Source of the DNA: Candidatus Heimdallarchaeota archaeon
Lineage (GTDB): Archaea > Asgardarchaeota > Heimdallarchaeia > Heimdallarchaeales > Heimdallarchaeaceae
Length of the DNA: 10,378 bases
Direction: 5' to 3'
NCBI GenBank assembly: GCA_030668825.1
Contig: DAOVET010000091.1
Coordinates: forward strand, 1 to 10,378
Shown here in pieces: positions 1 to 10,183 of the stretch (its first letter is position 1; each line of letters starts with the position of its first letter). The translations under genes and the position numbers were made by a program. The notes beneath the pieces are model-generated. The model worked only from the letters and a program-made list of their open reading frames with translations, made no database searches and was not told the origin of the DNA.

Positions 1-1896
1 TCTTCCACCAAGAGCTGATAAACTTATTTTTGATTTCTTCAAGACCTCTTCATCGGATCTGAGACGTTTTTCTAGCTTAACACGTAATTCTTTACCTTCC
101 TTTGCTTTCATTTTCTTGCTTGCTATTTTCGCCTTAATCTGTCTGAGACGTTCTCTAATAGCTAAAACTTCTTCATATTGTTTGATAAATTTCTCTATCT
201 CATCAACAGGAATGAATTCTTTTTCTATCTCAGCTTCAGAAAGTCCCTTTACTCGTTTTGATGACCAGCGAAGTCCAAGGTATATAGCAAAGATGATACC
301 GACTGCCATAAATTGCCAGAAGAATGTGATAAACATGTTAAAACCAGTGTAACTATATTCTATGATTAATGATGCATTATCGCTTCCCGAGAAATTCGTG
401 AACTGTAATCCTACTACTCTCTTTGTTCCCAGTGCAGTAAAATCGAATAATCTCCCATAATCAATTATCATATCCTGATAAGGATCTGTGTTCCCATAGT
501 TGAGTTCCTTATATACTGCTCCCTTAGGAAGAATTATTTCAAGATGTAAATTATCTATGGACCAATTCACAATTGAACTTGGAGAAAGTGTGAGCTTGTA
601 GTTTGAACTTCCTTGTTCTTTCTCTAGAACACTCTCCATTGGAACAGTGTATACAATTGTAAATTTCATTTCTTCTCCATGGAATAGAGGTTCTCTTGGA
701 AAGATAAGCAAAGCTTTATGTCCTTCAAATGTACTATCCCTTAGGTTGTAAGCACCTCTTTCAAAATATCCCTCTTCATTTATCTGATATTCTTGATTTA
801 AGGATCCGGTGTCATCATACAAATCAATAACAGTAACGTTTTTTGGAAACACTAGCGGGAATGCGTTTAAAGCATACAGTTTTGGAGAGAGAAAATTATA
901 ATCTTCAGGTCTTTCACTACCTAAGAAAATGATATTCTGTGTTTCGGTTATTTGTACTAATCCATAAGGATCAATTTCTACGACTCTATGAACTTCTGTT
1001 GCTTTAAACAACAATGTGCTTGAATGTTGTTCTACATCAGCAGTACTTACTGAAGATATATGTACATTAAGAAGAAGATCGTCAGAATATGATTGACTAT
1101 AGTTAAATGGTAATCTTGTAATGTTTGTCCATTCAAGAGTACCACTTGTTGCGTCATTGATAACGGTTATTCCTTCAGTGTCATTTCCCGGAGATATTGA
1201 GAACCCTGGAGTGTCTAGATAATTGTCATTACCCTGTTTTGTAACTTTGACTGATCCATTAACAATTGGTATATCGTTAATAAGGGGATACAACAGCTCT
1301 TCGTAATGAGTGATCTGTTCTCCTGAGTAAAGCTCGTGAGTATAAGGCATAGAAAATTCAATATAAGAATTGATGAAATAAACATCCTCTTGGTGAATTT
1401 CTGTTAAATTCTCACTGAAGGGAATGATGAAGGTTGTATAGTTCAATAATTTGTTAAATGTATATGTCCGAGAAGCATTAGCTTCTATTAGTGACTCATA
1501 AGTGGCATTAGCAACACGAAAACTGGCGTAAGATATTTTGTCAGTATGAATATTAGGCAATGTATAATTGAAATAGGTCAAATTTAGATTACCGATGACA
1601 TTTAATTCAATACTATCTATAATTGAAAGCACACCAAAATTCTCTATGTTAATTGTTCTATTAAATGAAGATGTTGCATTTAATCCATAGTCGATGATGC
1701 TGATATCATTATATCCTTCATCACTGTACACTATACCACTTGAGGTAAGAAGGGGTGTACTATTCACAATATTCGATAGATCTGTTTGAGGGTTCATTTC
1801 TGCGGAACCCTGTGTTGAACTAAACATAGTTGAAAACGATATGCTAACGATGACAAGTAATGTAAAAGTTAACATTGTACCTTTGTTTTTGTGCAT
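1..1896 (-). CDS. Ribophorin I (RPN1/Ost1)-like type I membrane glycoprotein, partial (3' end runs off the window)
   Basis: Manual translation from ATG at 1896 is open for 632 codons to the window edge. N-terminal signal sequence MHKNKGTMLTFTLLVIVSISFSTMFSSTQG. Ribophorin I motifs occur in order: HRVVEIDPYGLVQITE (990-943), FPKNVTVIDLYDDTGSL, PREPLFHGEEMKFTIVYTVP (starts 699), IDNLHLEIILPKGA, LGTKRVV, IEYSY. One TM helix MFITFFWQFMAVGIIFAIYLGL (336-271) is followed by a K/E-rich helical tail. SD-like GAGGT lies upstream of the ATG. Confidence 0.85.
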   Translation of the reverse strand, partial: MHKNKGTMLTFTLLVIVSISFSTMFSSTQGSAEMNPQTDLSNIVNSTPLLTSSGIVYSDEGYNDISIIDYGLNATSSFNRTINIENFGVLSIIDSIELNVIGNLNLTYFNYTLPNIHTDKISYASFRVANATYESLIEANASRTYTFNKLLNYTTFIIPFSENLTEIHQEDVYFINSYIEFSMPYTHELYSGEQITHYEELLYPLINDIPIVNGSVKVTKQGNDNYLDTPGFSISPGNDTEGITVINDATSGTLEWTNITRLPFNYSQSYSDDLLLNVHISSVSTADVEQHSSTLLFKATEVHRVVEIDPYGLVQITETQNIIFLGSERPEDYNFLSPKLYALNAFPLVFPKNVTVIDLYDDTGSLNQEYQINEEGYFERGAYNLRDSTFEGHKALLIFPREPLFHGEEMKFTIVYTVPMESVLEKEQGSSNYKLTLSPSSIVNWSIDNLHLEIILPKGAVYKELNYGNTDPYQDMIIDYGRLFDFTALGTKRVVGLQFTNFSGSDNASLIIEYSYTGFNMFITFFWQFMAVGIIFAIYLGLRWSSKRVKGLSEAEIEKEFIPVDEIEKFIKQYEEVLAIRERLRQIKAKIASKKMKAKEGKELRVKLEKRLRSDEEVLKKSKISLSALGGR

Positions 1897-1945
1897 TTAT
1901 ACTAACCTCGTCTAATACGGTCCTTGTGCAGATGAGAAGGAGCAA

Positions 1946-1960
1946 TTTTAAATATTTTGG
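1946..1960 (-). promoter_or_regulatory. Putative archaeal BRE/TATA promoter for the ribophorin I-like gene
   Basis: Minus strand reads CCAAAA-TATTTAAAA about 50 nt upstream of the ATG at 1896, which leaves a short 5' UTR containing the GAGGT SD-like site. The AT-rich background limits certainty. Confidence 0.45.
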
Positions 1961-1975
1961 CTTATCAGACATTTC

Positions 1976-2026
1976 ATGAAATTCGAAGATTTTGGAAGAG
2001 AACTAAAGATTTTCAAACCCTTCTTT
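1976..2026 (+). repeat. Diverged direct repeat, copy 1 (upstream of the peptidase gene)
   Basis: atgaaattcgaagattttggaagagaactaaagattttcaaacccttcttt matches 3378-3428 at 38/51 positions ungapped (22 of the first 26). Confidence 0.7.
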
Positions 2027-2183
2027 CTATTTTTGTGAAAAACTAGATTTGATGGTTAATTAGTAAATATTTTACTTCACTGTTTGAATTGAATTATCAA
2101 ATTGTAAAATTATATTTTAACTACCTAATGTTTATATGTTAATTTGTCTATTATACAGTACTAAATATATAGGAGATGAAATT

Positions 2184-3308
2184 TTGAATAGAAACAAAAA
2201 CATAAAAAATCAATTTTCTGGTTTTACTGTACTGTTCATTCTTGTTTTGTTCTTTACCTCTACTATTTCAAATGCTGCATTTGGAATAGAATATACTTAT
2301 AGAGGAGAGGTGCGTAATGAAGATGGAACAGTACTTAATAACGTGAAAATAGAACTTTTAGAAGACTTGCAGGTTGTATTTACTACTTATACTGGTTCAG
2401 ATGGCAAATATGAATTTGCATATACACCAAACAGACTGAAGATATACAGAATTAGAGCATCTAAGTATCCTTATGAAACAGAAGATAAACTCGCTTTAAA
2501 TATTCCAAGAACAACCATATGCGAAACAGATTTTGTATTGATTTATATTGAAAAATTTGCAGTTCTTGTGGGAATAAATGAGTATCAGAATGTTTTGATA
2601 CCTCCTCTTGCTTGTCCACATAGCGATGTAAATGCCTGGTACTATTTTCTAGAGGCGTACCTAGATTTTCCTGAAGACAATTTATATGTCTTTGGAGATC
2701 AGAATGAGGAAAATTATTTCAAATATACAGGAATAGCTACAAAGAGTAATGTTGTAAACAAGATTCAAGATGTTATGAACGAAGCAGATTCTACAGACAT
2801 AGTTGCTTTCATTTTCAGTGGACATGGTGGGATAAATGGAGGAGCAGCAACGATAATAATGTGGGATGAATATCAACAACTACATGATTGGGAGATAGTA
2901 GAAATAGTTGAGAGACCTTTAGTTGAGTCACCTAAAATTTTCGCTTTCATAGAAACTTGTCATAGTGGTGGATTTGTTAATGGACCTTGGACATTTCAAG
3001 GAACAATAATACATGATCTTACATCGATGAGCAATTCCGAAAAAGTCTATGCAACAACACCATGTGACTTTAATGGAGGTTCTTGGGAATCGTCTATTCT
3101 TGATTCTGGATTATGGACATATTTCTTTCTAGATATGACCTGGATAGGTCATTATGGAGGAGCACAGCATATACCATTAGAAGATATATATGATGTAGCT
3201 AAACCTGATTATGTACAATATCTCATAGATAATTATTTGATGGATCCAAATTATCATAATACTCCTCAAGAATTTGATGGAAACCCAAATGAATGGTTTG
3301 ATCTTTAG
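2184..3308 (+). CDS. Secreted clan CD (caspase/metacaspase/legumain-fold) cysteine peptidase with an N-terminal carboxypeptidase-regulatory-like beta-sandwich domain
   Basis: TTG 2184 is preferred over 2136 because GGAGATG (2172-2178) is an SD-like site and the start gives a signal peptide (MNRNKNIKNQFSGFTVLFILVLFFTSTISNA). Beta domain YRGEVRNEDGTVL...TYTGSDGKYEF...YRIRASKYPY...DFVL at 2298-2540. Peptidase domain KFAVLVGINEY, ATKSNV, FSGHGG (His 2823-2825), IETCHSGG (Cys 2958-2960). Confidence 0.88.
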   Translation: MNRNKNIKNQFSGFTVLFILVLFFTSTISNAAFGIEYTYRGEVRNEDGTVLNNVKIELLEDLQVVFTTYTGSDGKYEFAYTPNRLKIYRIRASKYPYETEDKLALNIPRTTICETDFVLIYIEKFAVLVGINEYQNVLIPPLACPHSDVNAWYYFLEAYLDFPEDNLYVFGDQNEENYFKYTGIATKSNVVNKIQDVMNEADSTDIVAFIFSGHGGINGGAATIIMWDEYQQLHDWEIVEIVERPLVESPKIFAFIETCHSGGFVNGPWTFQGTIIHDLTSMSNSEKVYATTPCDFNGGSWESSILDSGLWTYFFLDMTWIGHYGGAQHIPLEDIYDVAKPDYVQYLIDNYLMDPNYHNTPQEFDGNPNEWFDL

Positions 3309-3377
3309 TATTAATTCGTTAGAATTCGTGTAATGATGAATGCCAGTTTAACCAAAGAAAATCTAGATTTTGCTTTA

Positions 3378-3428
3378 ATGAAATTCTAAGTTTCAGGAAG
3401 AGAGCTCAATCTCTTTCAATACTTCTTT
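3378..3428 (+). repeat. Diverged direct repeat, copy 2 (downstream of the peptidase gene)
   Basis: atgaaattctaagtttcaggaagagagctcaatctctttcaatacttcttt, 1402 bp from copy 1. Confidence 0.7.
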
Positions 3429-3434
3429 TTTTTT
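3396..3434 (+). terminator. Putative terminator of the peptidase gene
   Basis: 8-bp stem GGAAGAGA/TCTCTTTC (one G-U pair, loop GCTCAA) followed by a T9 tract at 3426-3434, about 90 nt after the stop codon. Confidence 0.5.
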
Positions 3435-3540
3435 ATTTATAAATTGGAGAAAAATACTAAGATATCTAGGAATAATTCTAGTATAATGATGGGTAATTAT
3501 AATGTTCCAATTCTCATTGTAATAACAGTGAAACAGTTAA

Positions 3541-3785
3541 TTACTGGGATCCTTTCGATTCCTTTTGATCTCCTTCGAAGTCACCTAGCATCGTTTGAAC
3601 TTTAAGATTACACTTCACATGGATTCGTACAGTTACCCTCAGATAAACTCCTAGAACCATGTAAGGATTAAATGTACGAATCTTACGTCTACAAATTTCA
3701 TTACTTTTGCTTCGATCTAATCCTTCTCGAAAGAAATGTAACCGATATCACTAAAATCGCTACTGAGAGTTACTTTTTTTCTTTT
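3541..3785. other. GC-enriched intergenic island with nested inverted repeats (candidate structured RNA or element remnant)
   Basis: About 37% GC over 3541-3770 versus about 22% over 3421-3540 (hand count). Perfect 10-bp inverted repeat at 3622-3631/3673-3682 plus nested outer stems; T-tract at 3774-3785. Confidence 0.3.
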
Positions 3786-4025
3786 AGTATCACAATCTTA
3801 TCATATAGGATGGATGCTGTTTCTAGCTCGTATACAGCATTGACACTTAGCATGAATAATTCATATTATAGGCAAATGTAATTCTCATCAAATTTAACAA
3901 ATAATATACTTCATATTGCTATTTTCTAGCAAAATAATTTTTTTTGTAATCAAAAACGCTATTTCTGTGAATTTTAATCTACATTCAGTAGGAAAATTTT
4001 TGTATTTTGTTACTTTCAGCTATTT

Positions 4026-4830: not shown

Positions 4831-7524
4831 TTGAACTTGACAAAGATTAGGGGCAAATCTAAAATGAAGCGGTTTGATGATAGAAAACTAAAACCAAAAC
4901 TTACACCAATGATGCAACAATGGCAAAAGATAAAAAATCAATACCCAGATTATGTGTTATTCTTTAGAGCCGGTGACTTCTACGAATGTTTTAATGAAGA
5001 TGCAAAAGTCGCTTCTGATATTTTAAATATCACTCTAACTGCTCGTAATATCGGAGAAAAGAAATTTCCTCTTGCTGGAGTGCCTTATCATGCAGTTGAT
5101 GCGTATATAGCAAAAATGGTTCAATCGGGAAACAAAGTAGCTATTGTTGAGCAGCTAGAAGACCCTAAATTTGCTAAGAAAATAGTCAAGAGAGGAGTAG
5201 TGCAGCTCGTAACAAGAGGAACAATCACTTTACCAGAATCTCTTGGAAAAAGTGAAAACAATTACCTCGTCTCAATTAAGAAAGAACAAGGAATCTATGG
5301 ATTAGCTGCACTTGATTTATCTACCGGTGAATTTCTAGTTGCTGATTTCAACGAAGCGAACGCTGTCAATTTACTGGAAGTTGAGCTAACAAGATTGAAA
5401 CCTTCTGAAATCATTGTTGAAGGTGAGTTGTGGAAATCTCTGAATATTTACTCAGACGCGCAACTATGTACAATTACTTACAGAGATGATTTCTTCTTTG
5501 ATATTGAACAAGGAAAAGAAAACCTTTGTCAACATTTCAATGTATTAAGTTTGGAAGGTTTCGGGATTGGTGACTATAACACTTCTACTGGTTCAGCAGG
5601 AGCAATCTTGAGTTATATTAAGGAAACACAAATGAGAGAAAATTTCTTGAATATAACTAAAATCAGCCCCATTAGTAGTCAAGACTACATGGTCTTGGAT
5701 TCAAGTACGATTAGAAATCTTGAACTCATTGAAAACCTGCGTGACAGGACTGAGTATGGAACTCTTAGGCAAGTAACAGATAATACAAGAACTTCTGCTG
5801 GTTCTCGATTGTTAACTACTTGGATTCTTCGACCTAGTCTAAAACAATCCACTATTCTAACACGAATCGATTCTACTGAAGAGTTGTTAGATGATAATAT
5901 TTTGCGTGATGAAATTCGAGATGCTTTGGGTAGAATGAATGATCTTGAAAGACTTATCAGCCGTGTATGTTTAGGTAGAAGCAAACCTCGTGATTTATTG
6001 GCACTTAGACATTCCCTGGAATTAATACCCACACTAAAAACACTACTCTCTAAAACTAAAACCTCTTTACTCCAAGAAATCAGAGAAAATCTTGATCCCG
6101 TTCAAAAGGCAGTTGATACAATTACTAAAGGAATTGAAGATGAGGTCCCTGCAAGTATCAAGGATGGCAATGTGGTAAGAGAAGGGTACAATGATGAGTT
6201 AGACGAATTAAGGAAGATACAAAAAAGTGGGAAATCTTTTCTAACTTCATTAGAAGCTAGAGAGAAAGTTCAAACTGGTATAAAGACCCTTAAGGTAAGA
6301 TTTAACAAAGTTTTTGGTTATTATATTGAGATACCCAAATCCGTTTCAGAAAATGTTCCTCCAGAATACGAACGGAAACAAACATTGGTTAATGCTGAAA
6401 GATTCATCACTCCAGAATTAAAGGAATATGAAGAAAAAATACTAAATGCAGAAGATAAGATACTTGTTTTAGAAGAACGATTATTTAACGAAATACTTGA
6501 AGAAATCAGCAAATATGCAACAGAAATTCAATCGGATGCATATAATTGTGCAGTTTTAGATGTGATAACCACCTTTGCGCAAAATGCTGTATACTATAAT
6601 TACATCAAACCAGAAATAACTGATAAGGATATATTGGAAATCAAAGGAGGACGTCACCCAGTAGTTGAACAATTACTTGAACGAACGACATTTATCCCCA
6701 ACGATACTGTTCTCAAGAAAGATTCTGAGAGAATATTGATAGTTACAGGGCCCAACATGGGTGGCAAAAGCACTTTATTAAGACAAGTGGCTTTAATTGT
6801 CTTAATGGCCCAAATTGGAAGCTTTGTTCCAGCTACTTCTGCAAAAATTGGCCTAACTGACAGGATATTCACGCGAATTGGTGCTCATGATGTTATTGTT
6901 GAAAATAGATCTACCTTTATGGTTGAGATGTATGAATGCGCAAACATTCTAAATAATGCAACAGAGAGGAGTCTAGTTATCCTAGATGAGGTTGGTAGAG
7001 GAACTTCTACATATGATGGTGTAGCCATTGCTTGGTCAATAACTGAATATCTTCACAATAATATTGGCAAGCTTGGACCAAGAACAATGTTTGCCACACA
7101 TTATCATGAACTAATAGAGTTAGAAGAATTGTGGCCTAGAGTAAAAAATTATCATGCTTCTGTTAAGAATGTTAATGGTGAAATCCACTTCTTGTACAAA
7201 GTAAAAGAAGGTGGTATAAGTGAAAGTTTTGGTGTTCATGTTGCTTCTTTAGCGGGATTGCCTAAGAAAGTTATAGAAGATGCAGATACAATGCTTTCAG
7301 TTTTACACAGACAAGATAAAAAAGAAAATGAAAAACTCGATCACAAAAAGGTCGTAAAAGGTGAGGTTAAAAAAGAAGATCAATCACTAATTGAAGAGGG
7401 TACACAACTGATAAATGAAATTTCAAGTGTTAATATTGACAGAATCACTCCAATAGAAGCTTTTAATTTATTAAACCAACTAGTAGAGAAAAGTAAGAAA
7501 TACTTTGAAAAGGATAAGAAATAA
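4831..7524 (+). CDS. mutS: DNA mismatch repair protein MutS (MutS1 type)
   Basis: TPMMQQ, mismatch-binding GDFYECF (Phe-X-Glu), AGVPYH, RHPVVE, Walker A GPNMGGKST, STFMVEM, Walker B ILDEVGRGTST, FATHYHEL, SFGVHVASLAGLP, C-terminal DRITPIEAF. Start is TTG 4831 or ATG 4864. Confidence 0.97.
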   Translation: MNLTKIRGKSKMKRFDDRKLKPKLTPMMQQWQKIKNQYPDYVLFFRAGDFYECFNEDAKVASDILNITLTARNIGEKKFPLAGVPYHAVDAYIAKMVQSGNKVAIVEQLEDPKFAKKIVKRGVVQLVTRGTITLPESLGKSENNYLVSIKKEQGIYGLAALDLSTGEFLVADFNEANAVNLLEVELTRLKPSEIIVEGELWKSLNIYSDAQLCTITYRDDFFFDIEQGKENLCQHFNVLSLEGFGIGDYNTSTGSAGAILSYIKETQMRENFLNITKISPISSQDYMVLDSSTIRNLELIENLRDRTEYGTLRQVTDNTRTSAGSRLLTTWILRPSLKQSTILTRIDSTEELLDDNILRDEIRDALGRMNDLERLISRVCLGRSKPRDLLALRHSLELIPTLKTLLSKTKTSLLQEIRENLDPVQKAVDTITKGIEDEVPASIKDGNVVREGYNDELDELRKIQKSGKSFLTSLEAREKVQTGIKTLKVRFNKVFGYYIEIPKSVSENVPPEYERKQTLVNAERFITPELKEYEEKILNAEDKILVLEERLFNEILEEISKYATEIQSDAYNCAVLDVITTFAQNAVYYNYIKPEITDKDILEIKGGRHPVVEQLLERTTFIPNDTVLKKDSERILIVTGPNMGGKSTLLRQVALIVLMAQIGSFVPATSAKIGLTDRIFTRIGAHDVIVENRSTFMVEMYECANILNNATERSLVILDEVGRGTSTYDGVAIAWSITEYLHNNIGKLGPRTMFATHYHELIELEELWPRVKNYHASVKNVNGEIHFLYKVKEGGISESFGVHVASLAGLPKKVIEDADTMLSVLHRQDKKENEKLDHKKVVKGEVKKEDQSLIEEGTQLINEISSVNIDRITPIEAFNLLNQLVEKSKKYFEKDKK

Positions 7525-7578: not shown

Positions 7579-9411
7579 TTGAAGAAAATGATTATTGAAC
7601 TCGATACTCTCACCATAAATAAAATTGCAGCAGGAGAGGTTATAGAGAGGCCTGCTTCTGTTGTTAAAGAAATTGTAGAAAATTCGATTGATGCTGGAAG
7701 CACTCAAATCAAAATAATCCTTCAAGAAGGGGGAAAGAAACTCATTGAAATCACAGACAATGGATCAGGAATGAACCACAATGATGCTATATTATCAATC
7801 AAACGTCATACAACGAGTAAGATTGCAAAAGCTGAAGATTTGTTCTCAATTGCAAGTTTAGGTTTTAGAGGTGAAGCCTTAGCCAGCATAGTGAGTGTTG
7901 CCCAAGTTGAAATTTTTACCAAAAGGGAAGATGATGAATTAGGGACACATATTCAAGTTGAAGGAGGTAAAATCCTTTTAGATAAAAACATCTCCGTAGC
8001 AAATGGGACTAAAATTACAGTAAGGAATTTATTTTACAATGTACCTGTAAGAAGAAAGTTTCTAAAATCTGAAACAACTGAAATGAACCATATTACAGAA
8101 TATCTCACAAAACTAGCATTAGCATTCCCAGAAATATCATTTTCCCTAGTTCATAATAATCGTAGTGTGATAACTGCTCCTAAAGGAGATCTTATCGCTC
8201 AAATAAACTCTATTTTCGGAAAAAACATTGCCAAAGCATGTATTCCAGTTTCTAGGACGGAAGAAGAATACACGGTTTCAGGTTTTATAACTAAACCAGA
8301 ATTTTCTAGAAAATCAAGGGATTATCTTTATATTTTCGTTCTAAACCGACCTATCGTAAATAAAGTAATCACAGATGCGATACTTCGTGGCTATGGTACA
8401 GCCCTACCACATAATAGGTCCCCCATAGTTTTTCTAAATATCACAATTCCAAAGAACGAAGTTGATGTCAATGTTCATCCCACGAAAAAAGAAGTTCGTT
8501 TTAGTAAAGAAGCAAAATTGTTTAGTCTAATTGAACTTGCAGTAAAAGAATCTCTAGAAAAAAGTGGATTAGAGATATTTGAAAGGGTATCAGAAACAAA
8601 ACACAAGCCCACAATGCTAGATCAACATTCAGCACCAAAAGTCGTTTCTAAGACACAACCCACCCAAATGCGGTCATCACCTTCTCCTTCTTCATCACAA
8701 GATAAAGTAGGGTATAAGGTAGTAAAAACAAGAGATAAATCGATTGATCTTTTCTTACCTTCTACTCACAGAGGAACTTCATACCAAAAGCAAGAATATT
8801 CGCCAAAACCACTGATCAAAATCCTTGGGATAATCAAGGATACCTATATTATAGCTGATACAAATGAAGGTCTTCTGTTATGTGATCAACATGCTGCGCA
8901 TGAGAAAATTAATTACATTAAATATGTTGACCAAATTAAGAGAAAAAAAATTACTGTTCAAAGTTTACTTGCACCTGTTTCAGTTAGTATAAAACCTTCA
9001 GAGTTAGAAGTTATAAATGACCTTAAGACTAAATTGAAAGAATATGGTTTTGAACTAGAAATTTTTGGTAAAAATGAGATTCTTATACGTTCAATACCTT
9101 CGATAATGGGTGTTGCTATTTCATATGAGTTGGCAAAAGACTTGATTGATATATTTAAAGAAAATATAGCCCAAATTAGCAAACAAATAGCGCCTGAAGA
9201 TTTAGATTTTATAAGAGACATAGTTTCTATCTTTGCATGTAGAAGATCCATTAAAGCTGGTGACAAAATCTCTGTTAGTGAAGCTGAATCATTGATTGAG
9301 AACCTCTTAAAATTAGAAGAGCCTTATACATGTCCTCATGGGCGTCCAACAATGGTTATCTTGAATCAGAAGTATATCGAAGAAATATTCCAAAGAGATT
9401 ACAAATCATGA
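7579..9411 (+). CDS. mutL: DNA mismatch repair endonuclease MutL
   Basis: IAAGEVIERPASVVKEIVENSIDAG, DNGSGM, GFRGEALASI, LFYNVPVRRKFL, DVNVHPTKKEV. C-terminal endonuclease motifs DQHAAHE, ACR, CPHGRP and FQR. Start is TTG 7579 or ATG 7588. Confidence 0.97.
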   Translation: MKKMIIELDTLTINKIAAGEVIERPASVVKEIVENSIDAGSTQIKIILQEGGKKLIEITDNGSGMNHNDAILSIKRHTTSKIAKAEDLFSIASLGFRGEALASIVSVAQVEIFTKREDDELGTHIQVEGGKILLDKNISVANGTKITVRNLFYNVPVRRKFLKSETTEMNHITEYLTKLALAFPEISFSLVHNNRSVITAPKGDLIAQINSIFGKNIAKACIPVSRTEEEYTVSGFITKPEFSRKSRDYLYIFVLNRPIVNKVITDAILRGYGTALPHNRSPIVFLNITIPKNEVDVNVHPTKKEVRFSKEAKLFSLIELAVKESLEKSGLEIFERVSETKHKPTMLDQHSAPKVVSKTQPTQMRSSPSPSSSQDKVGYKVVKTRDKSIDLFLPSTHRGTSYQKQEYSPKPLIKILGIIKDTYIIADTNEGLLLCDQHAAHEKINYIKYVDQIKRKKITVQSLLAPVSVSIKPSELEVINDLKTKLKEYGFELEIFGKNEILIRSIPSIMGVAISYELAKDLIDIFKENIAQISKQIAPEDLDFIRDIVSIFACRRSIKAGDKISVSEAESLIENLLKLEEPYTCPHGRPTMVILNQKYIEEIFQRDYKS

Positions 9412-9427: not shown

Positions 9428-10183
9428 TTGTTAAATGAGAAGGAAAAAGAAAAATATAATCGTCAGCTCATTATCCCTGGTTTTGGTTCTAAAGGTCAAC
9501 AGAAGCTTAAATCAAGCAAAGTGCTTGTAGTAGGATTAGGTGGTTTAGGTTCAGGTGTACTTTACTATCTTGCAAGTGCGGGGATTGGTACGATAGGAAT
9601 TATTGATAAAGACAATGTTGAATTATCAAATCTTAACAGACAAATCTTACACAATGAAGAAAATTTGAATCAACCAAAAACAGATTCTGCTATTGAGAAA
9701 ATACAAAAAATGGATAAGGATATCAAAATTATACCTTATAATGAACCACTAACGCAAGAAAATGCAGAAGGAATACTATCTGGTTATGATTTTGTTGTTG
9801 AAGCCAGTGACAATTTTGAAACTAAATTTCTAATTAATGATTTTTGTATAAAGCTGGGAATACCATTTGTTATTGGTGGTGTTCTGCAATTTGAAGGACA
9901 ACTGATGACAGTACTTCCAGGGAAGTCAGCGTGTTATCGTTGCATATTCAAAGAATTACCTGAAAAAGGAAGTTACCCAACAACAGATAAAGAAGGAATT
10001 ATTGGCACAGTTGCAGGATTATTTGGGGTAATTGAGGCAAACGAAACCATAAAATACATTGTTTTTGATGATCCAGAAAAACTACTAGCCAACAAAATCC
10101 TCTATATAGAGTTAAAAAGTAATAATTTTGAAGTTTACAGCATTGAAAGAGACGAAAATTGCGTTGTTTGTTCCAAAAAATGA
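9428..10183 (+). CDS. ThiF/MoeB/HesA-family (E1-like) adenylyltransferase, no rhodanese domain
   Basis: YNRQL, GLGGLG nucleotide loop, DKDNVELSNLNRQ, SDNFETK, Zn-binding pairs CYRC and CVVC. SD-like AAGGTG at 9414-9419 precedes the TTG start. Confidence 0.94.
   Translation: MLNEKEKEKYNRQLIIPGFGSKGQQKLKSSKVLVVGLGGLGSGVLYYLASAGIGTIGIIDKDNVELSNLNRQILHNEENLNQPKTDSAIEKIQKMDKDIKIIPYNEPLTQENAEGILSGYDFVVEASDNFETKFLINDFCIKLGIPFVIGGVLQFEGQLMTVLPGKSACYRCIFKELPEKGSYPTTDKEGIIGTVAGLFGVIEANETIKYIVFDDPEKLLANKILYIELKSNNFEVYSIERDENCVVCSKK

Follow-up and report, generated by a model that had tools for sequence, protein, structure and literature searches.

Does an archaeal contig whose outermost gene runs off its edge encode ribophorin I (Ost1), the large non-catalytic subunit of the eukaryote-type oligosaccharyltransferase (OST), and what would such a protein do at an archaeal membrane? 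The question concerns contig DAOVET010000091.1 of a Candidatus Heimdallarchaeota archaeon (assembly GCA_030668825.1), of which 10,378 nucleotides, hereafter the window, were analysed. Ribophorin I is a eukaryotic signature protein that is cited for a translation-translocation-N-glycosylation machinery predating the endoplasmic reticulum (ER). At the left edge of the window, a 632-codon open frame (1..1896) lies on the minus strand, beginning with an ATG at 1896..1894 that has an in-frame stop directly upstream.

The frame is stop-free up to the left edge (flag '3open') and is therefore truncated rather than hidden. Because it runs off this edge without a stop, it was left out of the default open reading frame (ORF) list, in which such frames appear only on request. 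Complete orthologues in the fetched loci measure 693-703 aa, with tails of 157-162 aa (n=28), so about 70 C-terminal residues are absent from the window copy. Its closest orthologues have 702 aa and share 90% identity with it (P0002, from locus L001). The initial observation, made from the sequence by a first-pass annotation, is confirmed: this is a ribophorin I (Ost1) gene, and it had been interpreted correctly.

Family membership and fold of the window protein

The assignment of the window protein to Ribophorin I/Ost1 is supported by a Pfam match, by profile matches to the subunit 1 chains of human, yeast and Candidatus Prometheoarchaeum syntrophicum MK-D1, and by its fold. Pfam Ribophorin_I (PF04597), the family search proposed in the first-pass annotation, is the sole Pfam match of the protein, with a score of 52.9 bits (gathering score 25; E 4.2e-14), and it spans residues 277-541, which correspond to positions 178-435 of the 437-position profile. 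A profile of the window protein and 31 relatives (A1, 32 Heimdallarchaeial sequences) was then compared with PDB sequences. It matched human OST subunit 1 (6s7o_E) at E 1.6e-11 over profile positions 287-642, a stretch that includes the transmembrane helix and reaches into the tail. The other two chains matched were 8whn_A, the MK-D1 'Ribophorin 1 superfamily protein' (E 1.5e-5, positions 543-694), and yeast OST subunit 1 (6c26_1; E 7.6e-4).

The series of RPN1 motifs listed in the first-pass annotation found its counterpart in five of five cases in the hidden Markov model (HMM) alignment to 6s7o_E. Human RVIEVSHWGNIAVEE aligns with HRVVEIDPYGLVQITETQ in the window protein (residues 303-320), YYRDEIGN with LYDDTGSL (359-366), RPRFPLFGGW with FPREPLFHGEEM (399-410), ILPEGA with ILPKGAV (455-461) and GRPV with GTKRVV (490-495). 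The 32 Heimdallarchaeial sequences show no variation at R304, G312, E318, D361, G364, R401, G407, P457, G459, G490 or R493 and hardly any at M1, and D361 is still invariant across 107 sequences when 106 more distant representatives are added.

Relatives of the protein are numerous. All 54 protein matches are close relatives (39-90% identical), 53 of them with a precomputed PF04597 match, and a profile search of 1.84 billion representatives returned 486 relatives (E <= 1e-3), of which 204 have E <= 1e-10 and 29 have E <= 1e-30. When the window protein and 76 of the 150 listed representatives, picked by length, were scanned with Pfam, Ribophorin_I was found at E <= 1e-3 in 53 of the 77 sequences (best E 2.7e-33), with no such match in the other 24. 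Most database copies of Heimdallarchaeial Ost1 are labelled 'hypothetical protein'.

The structure points the same way. An AlphaFold2 (AF2) model built from A1 has a mean predicted local distance difference test (pLDDT) score of 75.8 and a predicted template-modelling (pTM) score of 0.66, and residues 72-515 are confidently all-beta. Confidence is low for residues 18-71 (pLDDT < 50 at 18-64 and 66-71) and for a helix at 5-27. The best eight Foldseek matches in the PDB, a comparison that the first-pass annotation had also called for, are all chains from human or yeast OST entries (8b6l_O, 7oci_A, 6ezn_A, 8agb_E, 6s7t_E, 6c26_1, 6s7o_E and 8pn9_E), with E 5.6e-25 to 1.7e-20 and alignments of 502-592 columns. 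Superposition on human 6s7t_E and on the five yeast chains gives template-modelling (TM) scores of TMt 0.71-0.75 and a root-mean-square deviation (rmsd) of 4.7-5.5 Å. In the PDB sequence search, 6s7o_E and 6c26_1 are labelled subunit 1 and the other six entries are listed as the same sequences. As the fold match extends over ~500-590 columns, the N-terminal half of the protein, which has no Pfam sequence match, also has the Ost1 fold. Taken together, a Pfam E of 4.2e-14 and a Foldseek E of 5.6e-25 place the match far beyond chance.

The Foldseek list also bears on the idea that this is an unrelated surface protein (S-layer, adhesin, DUF2207 or M1-aminopeptidase-like N-domain) that is only superficially like RPN1, an outcome that the first-pass annotation had itself named, for S-layer, DUF2207 and M1-aminopeptidase N-terminal domains, as telling against ribophorin. 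N-domains of LTA4H and M1 aminopeptidases and Ig-like adhesin domains do occur lower in the list (E 4e-9 to 1e-4): the ninth match is to PrgB Ig-like domains (E 4e-9, TM 0.14), and the M1-aminopeptidase and LTA4H N-domains reach E ~5e-6 over ~240 columns with TM ~0.24. Such matches span ~240 columns or have TM 0.09-0.25, however, and lie at least 11 orders of magnitude in E behind the eight OST chains, while S-layer and DUF2207 proteins never lead. With Ribophorin_I as the sole Pfam match and an architecture of transmembrane helix plus four-helix tail that fits OST1, a surface protein of this kind is highly improbable, being contradicted by the Pfam, profile, fold and tail matches alike.

Membrane topology, sequons and the cytosolic tail

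Hydropathy (19-residue windows, Kyte-Doolittle mean > 1.6) identified only two hydrophobic segments, residues 6-27, which follow K3 and K5 (windows 6-9), and residues 518-543 (windows starting 518-525). A type I topology is predicted from these features, with a signal-like N-terminus that would be cleaved, an ectodomain outside the cell and one transmembrane helix near the C-terminus. The outline given in the first-pass annotation, an ORF of at least 632 aa with a signal-like N-terminus, a large ectodomain, one transmembrane helix and a charged helical tail, was borne out, with the frame on the minus strand.

The distribution of N-X-S/T sequons is consistent with this topology. Residues 34-517 contain 17 sequons and the tail contains none. 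Composition-preserving shuffles gave 7.0 +/- 2.3 sequons, with 0 of 5000 reaching 17. All but one of the 17 lie within residues 72-517, the remaining one (N45) being in the linker, and ten are kept in at least 90% of the 32 homologues (N73, N79, N110, N130, N152, N238, N258, N265, N353 and N444). Orthologues carry 14-21 sequons before the transmembrane helix and 0-1 in the tail (n=29; 28 complete, one running off its contig). This split across the transmembrane helix would fit an outside-facing, glycosylated ectodomain, and the window Ost1 is itself probably heavily N-glycosylated.

Within the window, the tail comprises 89 aa (residues 544-632), one short of the 'at least 90 aa' first given for it. 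It contains 25 K+R against 16 D+E and is predicted to be helical, with AF2 helices at 564-592 and 598-628. Its full extent was studied in an alignment of the complete tails of 24 orthologues and the window's partial tail (A2), which has a mean column identity of 77%. Over the common part, the window tail is 85% identical to that of L001, the 90%-identical orthologue. The complete L001 tail was modelled as four helices (21-49, 55-85, 89-121 and 126-158; pLDDT 88.8, pTM 0.75), and its sole Foldseek match at E <= 1e-3 is 8whn (E 8.5e-5, TMq 0.77, TMt 0.85), with an rmsd of 2.3 Å over 142 columns at 20% identity. This entry holds the crystallised cytoplasmic domain of MK-D1 OST1. According to PMC11417166, the C-terminal domain of that protein folds as a bundle of four helices, shares its topology with the human RPN1 domain and pulls down human ribosomes. 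The human bundle is described as contacting eL28 and rRNA helices H25 and H19/20 (PMC6761772, citing Braunger 2018). The likeness of the tail to the ribosome-contacting domain of metazoan RPN1, proposed in the first-pass annotation, thus holds by way of the orthologue's complete tail (through its 8whn match) and PMC11417166.

The tail is also the part of the protein with the highest mean pairwise identity (0.62 in the window part and 0.76 beyond it), followed by the two ectodomain halves (0.55-0.56), with the linker lowest (0.27). All 25 complete tails examined have a net charge between +7 and +16. From the experiments on the human RPN1 and MK-D1 domains, we infer that the tail would bind the large ribosomal subunit.

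Proposed function and partner genes

The best explanation, including a proposed mechanism, is that the encoded protein is a Heimdallarchaeial Ost1/ribophorin I orthologue and serves as the large non-catalytic subunit of a eukaryote-type OST, and this is given a probability of roughly 0.8. By analogy with eukaryotic OST structures and with the MK-D1 experiments, the transmembrane helix and ectodomain would dock onto catalytic AglB/STT3 at the cell membrane. The basic cytosolic four-helix bundle would hold a translating ribosome, through its large subunit, beside the SecY/Sec61 channel. Nascent chains would then be N-glycosylated while emerging, so that glycosylation would be coupled to translocation.

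Several observations weigh against this explanation. To our knowledge, no archaeal multi-subunit OST has been isolated. The family evidence has gaps: profile positions 1-177 of PF04597 are without a sequence match, leaving coverage partial and the N-terminal half assigned by fold alone, and no NCBIfam model matches the window protein. A single-sequence phmmer search of PDB sequences likewise gave only two chance-level matches (E 4.2 and 9.4), which is why profile A1 was required for the PDB sequence matches. Regarding the tail, the last ~70 residues lie outside the window, so the bundle is seen in the orthologue and not in the window copy. Human RPN1 is not among the Foldseek rows printed for the tail model, and the link to the human tail therefore runs through the HMM alignment and PMC11417166. 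In that source, ribosome binding is demonstrated only for the Lokiarchaeal domain, with human ribosomes. Partner genes are also missing from the vicinity. No other OST, Sec or TRAP subunit was detected with Pfam or NCBIfam among the seven window proteins, the others being a caspase-like peptidase, a 69-aa ORF, DeoC, MutS, MutL and a ThiF/MoeB-type E1. The search for aglB/STT3, OST3/6, WBP1 and TRAP that the first-pass annotation had suggested was extended to L001, where none of them was found among 17 ORFs within 10 kb either side. These were 17 of the 26 ORFs of at least 90 aa, counterparts of deoC, mutS, mutL and thiF and antisense overlaps being left out, and subunits shorter than 90 aa would escape such a scan. 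Finally, Ost1 is said to be absent from MK-D1 in PMC11284389, in conflict with PMC11417166.

With no partner gene in the window or within 10 kb in L001, the case for a multi-subunit OST comes from the literature alone. Ost1 and Ost3 have previously been reported in Asgard archaea, Ost4 and Ost5 in most of their classes, and Ost2, WBP1 and Swp1 as restricted to Heimdallarchaeia (PMC10307638). Surveys list multi-subunit OST partners in the host's class (PMC10307638, PMC8813620). PMC11284389 describes agl genes as dispersed and reports that no clear eukaryote-like glycobiology was found in MK-D1.

The partner question matters most for the main rival, in which the main role of the ribophorin-fold protein is that of a ribosome receptor, or of an accessory to the translocon, at the cell membrane, with no stable AglB association and no part in glycosylation. 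Such a receptor would be in keeping with a tail that is the most conserved part of the protein and matches the ribosome-binding MK-D1 domain, with glycosylation partner genes that are not encoded nearby, and with the account given in PMC11284389. It sits poorly, however, with an ectodomain that retains the Ost1 fold over ~500 columns and keeps residues invariant in 32 Heimdallarchaeial sequences (D361 in 107, including distant relatives). That fold belongs to OST in every solved eukaryotic structure, and OST partners are reported from the same class (PMC10307638). A receptor without a part in glycosylation is therefore considered unlikely, if the strongest of the alternatives, and the OST subunit remains the preferred explanation.

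Two small genes downstream of ost1, beyond the left edge of the window, were seen in related loci. In 25 of the 28 loci examined, the same strand carries, ~100 bp downstream, a gene for a soluble protein of 134-147 aa (L001 12215-12628, +); the loci without it are the two Heimdallarchaeum chromosomes and one contig end. In the window, its gene would sit beyond the left edge. Aligned across 20 sequences, the protein has a mean column identity of 81%. Its 137-aa representative matched no Pfam or NCBIfam family, its best PDB profile match has E 0.17, and its best score in Atlas is 0.89 (unnamed bacterial clusters), with none >= 0.9. Co-folding this 137-aa protein (A5) with the Ost1 tail (A2) gave scores of 0.00 and 0.00 against a mark of 0.32, which bears neither way on binding.

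Two genes downstream of ost1, the five closest relatives, L001 (12697-13014, +), L002, L004, L005 and L029, encode a protein of ~105 aa in which two hydrophobic segments are combined with a lysine-rich tail. We take its size and topology to recall Ost5/TMEM258. It gave no Ost5/TMEM258 match, only sub-threshold hydrophobic matches.

A more speculative idea starts from the cytosolic bundle being the most constrained part of Ost1 in Heimdallarchaeia: ribosome docking at the translocon, and not assistance to AglB, might be the ancestral core function of ribophorin I, and the 134-147 aa downstream protein could be an undescribed cytosolic component of a ribosome-translocon-OST assembly. This is a long shot, and less likely than the receptor alternative.

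The window adds one more Heimdallarchaeial Ost1 copy and leaves the overall picture unchanged. A report of ribophorin in Asgard archaea by Zaremba-Niedzwiedzka et al. is said to date from 2017. Both Asgard Ost1 and its ribosome-binding tail are already known from published work (PMC10307638, PMC11417166). The additions made here are descriptive: the complete Ost1 fold, ten conserved sequons, and a basic tail with higher conservation than the ectodomain. In practical terms, the gene is a marker of the contig as Heimdallarchaeial and a candidate for biochemistry of archaeal OST.

Host, gene neighbourhood and comparison with known Ost1 proteins

The features of the window are collected in Table 1.

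Table 1. Parts of the ost1 gene and neighbouring features, in window coordinates.
Feature	Position	Strand	Basis
ost1/ribophorin I gene, first 632 of ~702 codons	1..1896	-	ORF and translation, Pfam PF04597, orthologue lengths
Residues 1-33, signal-peptide-like N-terminus: K3, K5, hydrophobic core 6-27, polar stretch to GSA	1798..1896	-	hydropathy, AF2
Residues 34-71, poorly conserved linker, predicted disordered	1684..1797	-	pLDDT, pairwise identity
Residues 72-517, extracytoplasmic all-beta region, Ost1/RPN1 fold	346..1683	-	Foldseek, Pfam 277-541, sequons
Residues 518-543, single transmembrane helix	268..345	-	hydropathy, AF2 helix start at 518, aligns with human RPN1 transmembrane segment
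Residues 544-632, first 89 of ~159 cytosolic-domain residues, helices 1-2 of predicted four-helix bundle	1..267	-	AF2, orthologue tail
5' flank common to orthologous loci, presumed promoter region	1897..1977	.	blastn to L001-L004 through 1..1975-1977, then breaks
~1.9 kb segment between ost1 and deoC	1978-3903		absent from four closest relatives
D1 direct repeat, left copy	1972-2041		70 nt, 71% identity between copies
Caspase-fold peptidase gene, 390 aa	2136-3308	+	Peptidase_C14 E 3.4e-10
D1 direct repeat, right copy	3374-3443
orf69	3672-3881		
mutS, bacterial-type	4831-7524	+	NCBIfam MutS1 1012.7 bits
mutL, bacterial-type	7579-9411	+	NCBIfam MutL 537.9 bits
ThiF-family E1-like adenylyltransferase gene	9428-10183	+	Pfam ThiF E 3e-76

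An Asgard host, as had been proposed from the sequence, is borne out by the names of the matches, by the names of 23 of 29 loci and by the DNA identity of the flanks. Named hosts among the 54 protein matches are Heimdallarchaeota, Heimdallarchaeaceae or Heimdallarchaeum, except for one 'Asgard group' and one 'Thorarchaeota'. A genome scan yielded 29 loci, two of them in complete chromosomes: 23 are named Heimdallarchaeota or Heimdallarchaeum, one Thorarchaeota and one Promethearchaeati, and four are named only 'archaeon'. Blastn alignments to L001-L004 show 88-92% DNA identity with the window on either side of ost1. Gene order is conserved as well, with deoC near ost1 in all 29 loci and mutS, mutL and thiF each in 27; contig ends account for the misses. 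Together, 91.6% nucleotide identity to Heimdallarchaeial genomes and a gene order conserved with them support a Heimdallarchaeial Asgard archaeon as the host. Ost1 by itself would be no proof of an Asgard host, since OST1 and OST3/6 are also reported from TACK archaea (PMC11417166).

The same data address whether a gene of a eukaryotic signature family entered the contig by eukaryotic contamination or chimeric assembly. Family membership would allow for this, but ost1 neighbours deoC in each of the 29 archaeal loci, two of which lie in complete chromosomes, and mutS and mutL in 27 of the 29. The window shares its 88-92% DNA identity with four relatives across both flanks, and the protein has only 13-16% identity to human and yeast chains. 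Contradicted by conserved loci, complete chromosomes and flank identity, contamination is barely conceivable.

Other features of the neighbourhood are recorded as side observations. In L006 and L018, the mutS match covers only ~636 aa and mutL lies ~2 kb further on, which suggests an insertion in or after mutS. In NCBIfam, the ThiF-family protein comes nearest to MoeB and to UbaA, the SAMP-activating E1, without reaching the cut-off of either, and in most loci thiF lies on the opposite side of ost1 compared with the window. The tRNA and Rfam scans of the window gave no matches. L001 also encodes an 838-aa S-adenosylmethionine synthetase (15153-17669, +), presumably of the bacterial/eukaryotic MetK type. 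It matches the N, M and C domains of Pfam S-AdoMet_synt and is split by an intein that carries a LAGLIDADG homing endonuclease domain.

Neither of the two ORFs in the ~1.9 kb insertion occurs in any of the 29 loci. The larger encodes the caspase-fold peptidase, which also has a CarboxypepD_reg-like domain below cut-off, a hydrophobic N-terminus, and SGHG and ETCHSGG stretches that we take to resemble the catalytic His and Cys motifs of metacaspases. Besides the protein itself, a search of 5.8 billion proteins recovered a single relative, 26% identical. Of the two D1 repeat copies, the left one sits at the insertion's left junction and the other comes just after the caspase-like gene, and the repeat may be a trace of the arrival of a cassette. 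No transposase or integrase was seen.

Compared with known systems, the window protein is closest to its Heimdallarchaeial orthologues, with which it shares family, architecture and the neighbours deoC-mutS-mutL-thiF. It differs from the nearest of them by ~10% of the protein sequence, and the 1.9 kb insertion adjoins its 5' flank. Candidatus Heimdallarchaeum endolithica has a protein of 41% identity (P0051), whose UniRef name begins 'Ribophor'. MK-D1 OST1 (8whn) is likewise an Asgard Ost1 with a four-helix cytosolic bundle, on which the L001 tail model superposes with TM 0.77/0.85. The two differ in that tail identity is ~20%, that MK-D1 belongs to Lokiarchaeia and the window host to Heimdallarchaeia, and that ribosome binding is known for MK-D1 alone. 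By its construct boundaries, MK-D1 OST1 has 607 aa (PMC11417166).

Yeast Ost1p (6c26_1, 7oci_A, 8agb_E, 6ezn_A) gives the best superposition of ectodomain and transmembrane helix (TMt 0.72-0.75, rmsd 4.7-5.4 Å, ~500 columns). Unlike the Heimdallarchaeial protein, in which the orthologue model has the bundle, it is described as being without the cytosolic four-helix bundle (PMC6761772). Human RPN1 (6s7o_E, 8b6l_O) resembles the window protein in overall layout, with a signal sequence, an all-beta lumenal region, a single transmembrane helix and a cytosolic tail of helices. The profile alignment takes in the second lumenal half and the transmembrane helix and continues into the tail, and the Foldseek match reaches E 5.6e-25 over 592 columns. 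However, identity is only 13-14%, Heimdallarchaeial orthologues have ~700 aa against 607 in human, and the window protein has 17 sequons and a poorly conserved linker of ~40 residues after the signal sequence. Where human RPN1 resides in the ER, the window protein would presumably be located at the cell membrane.

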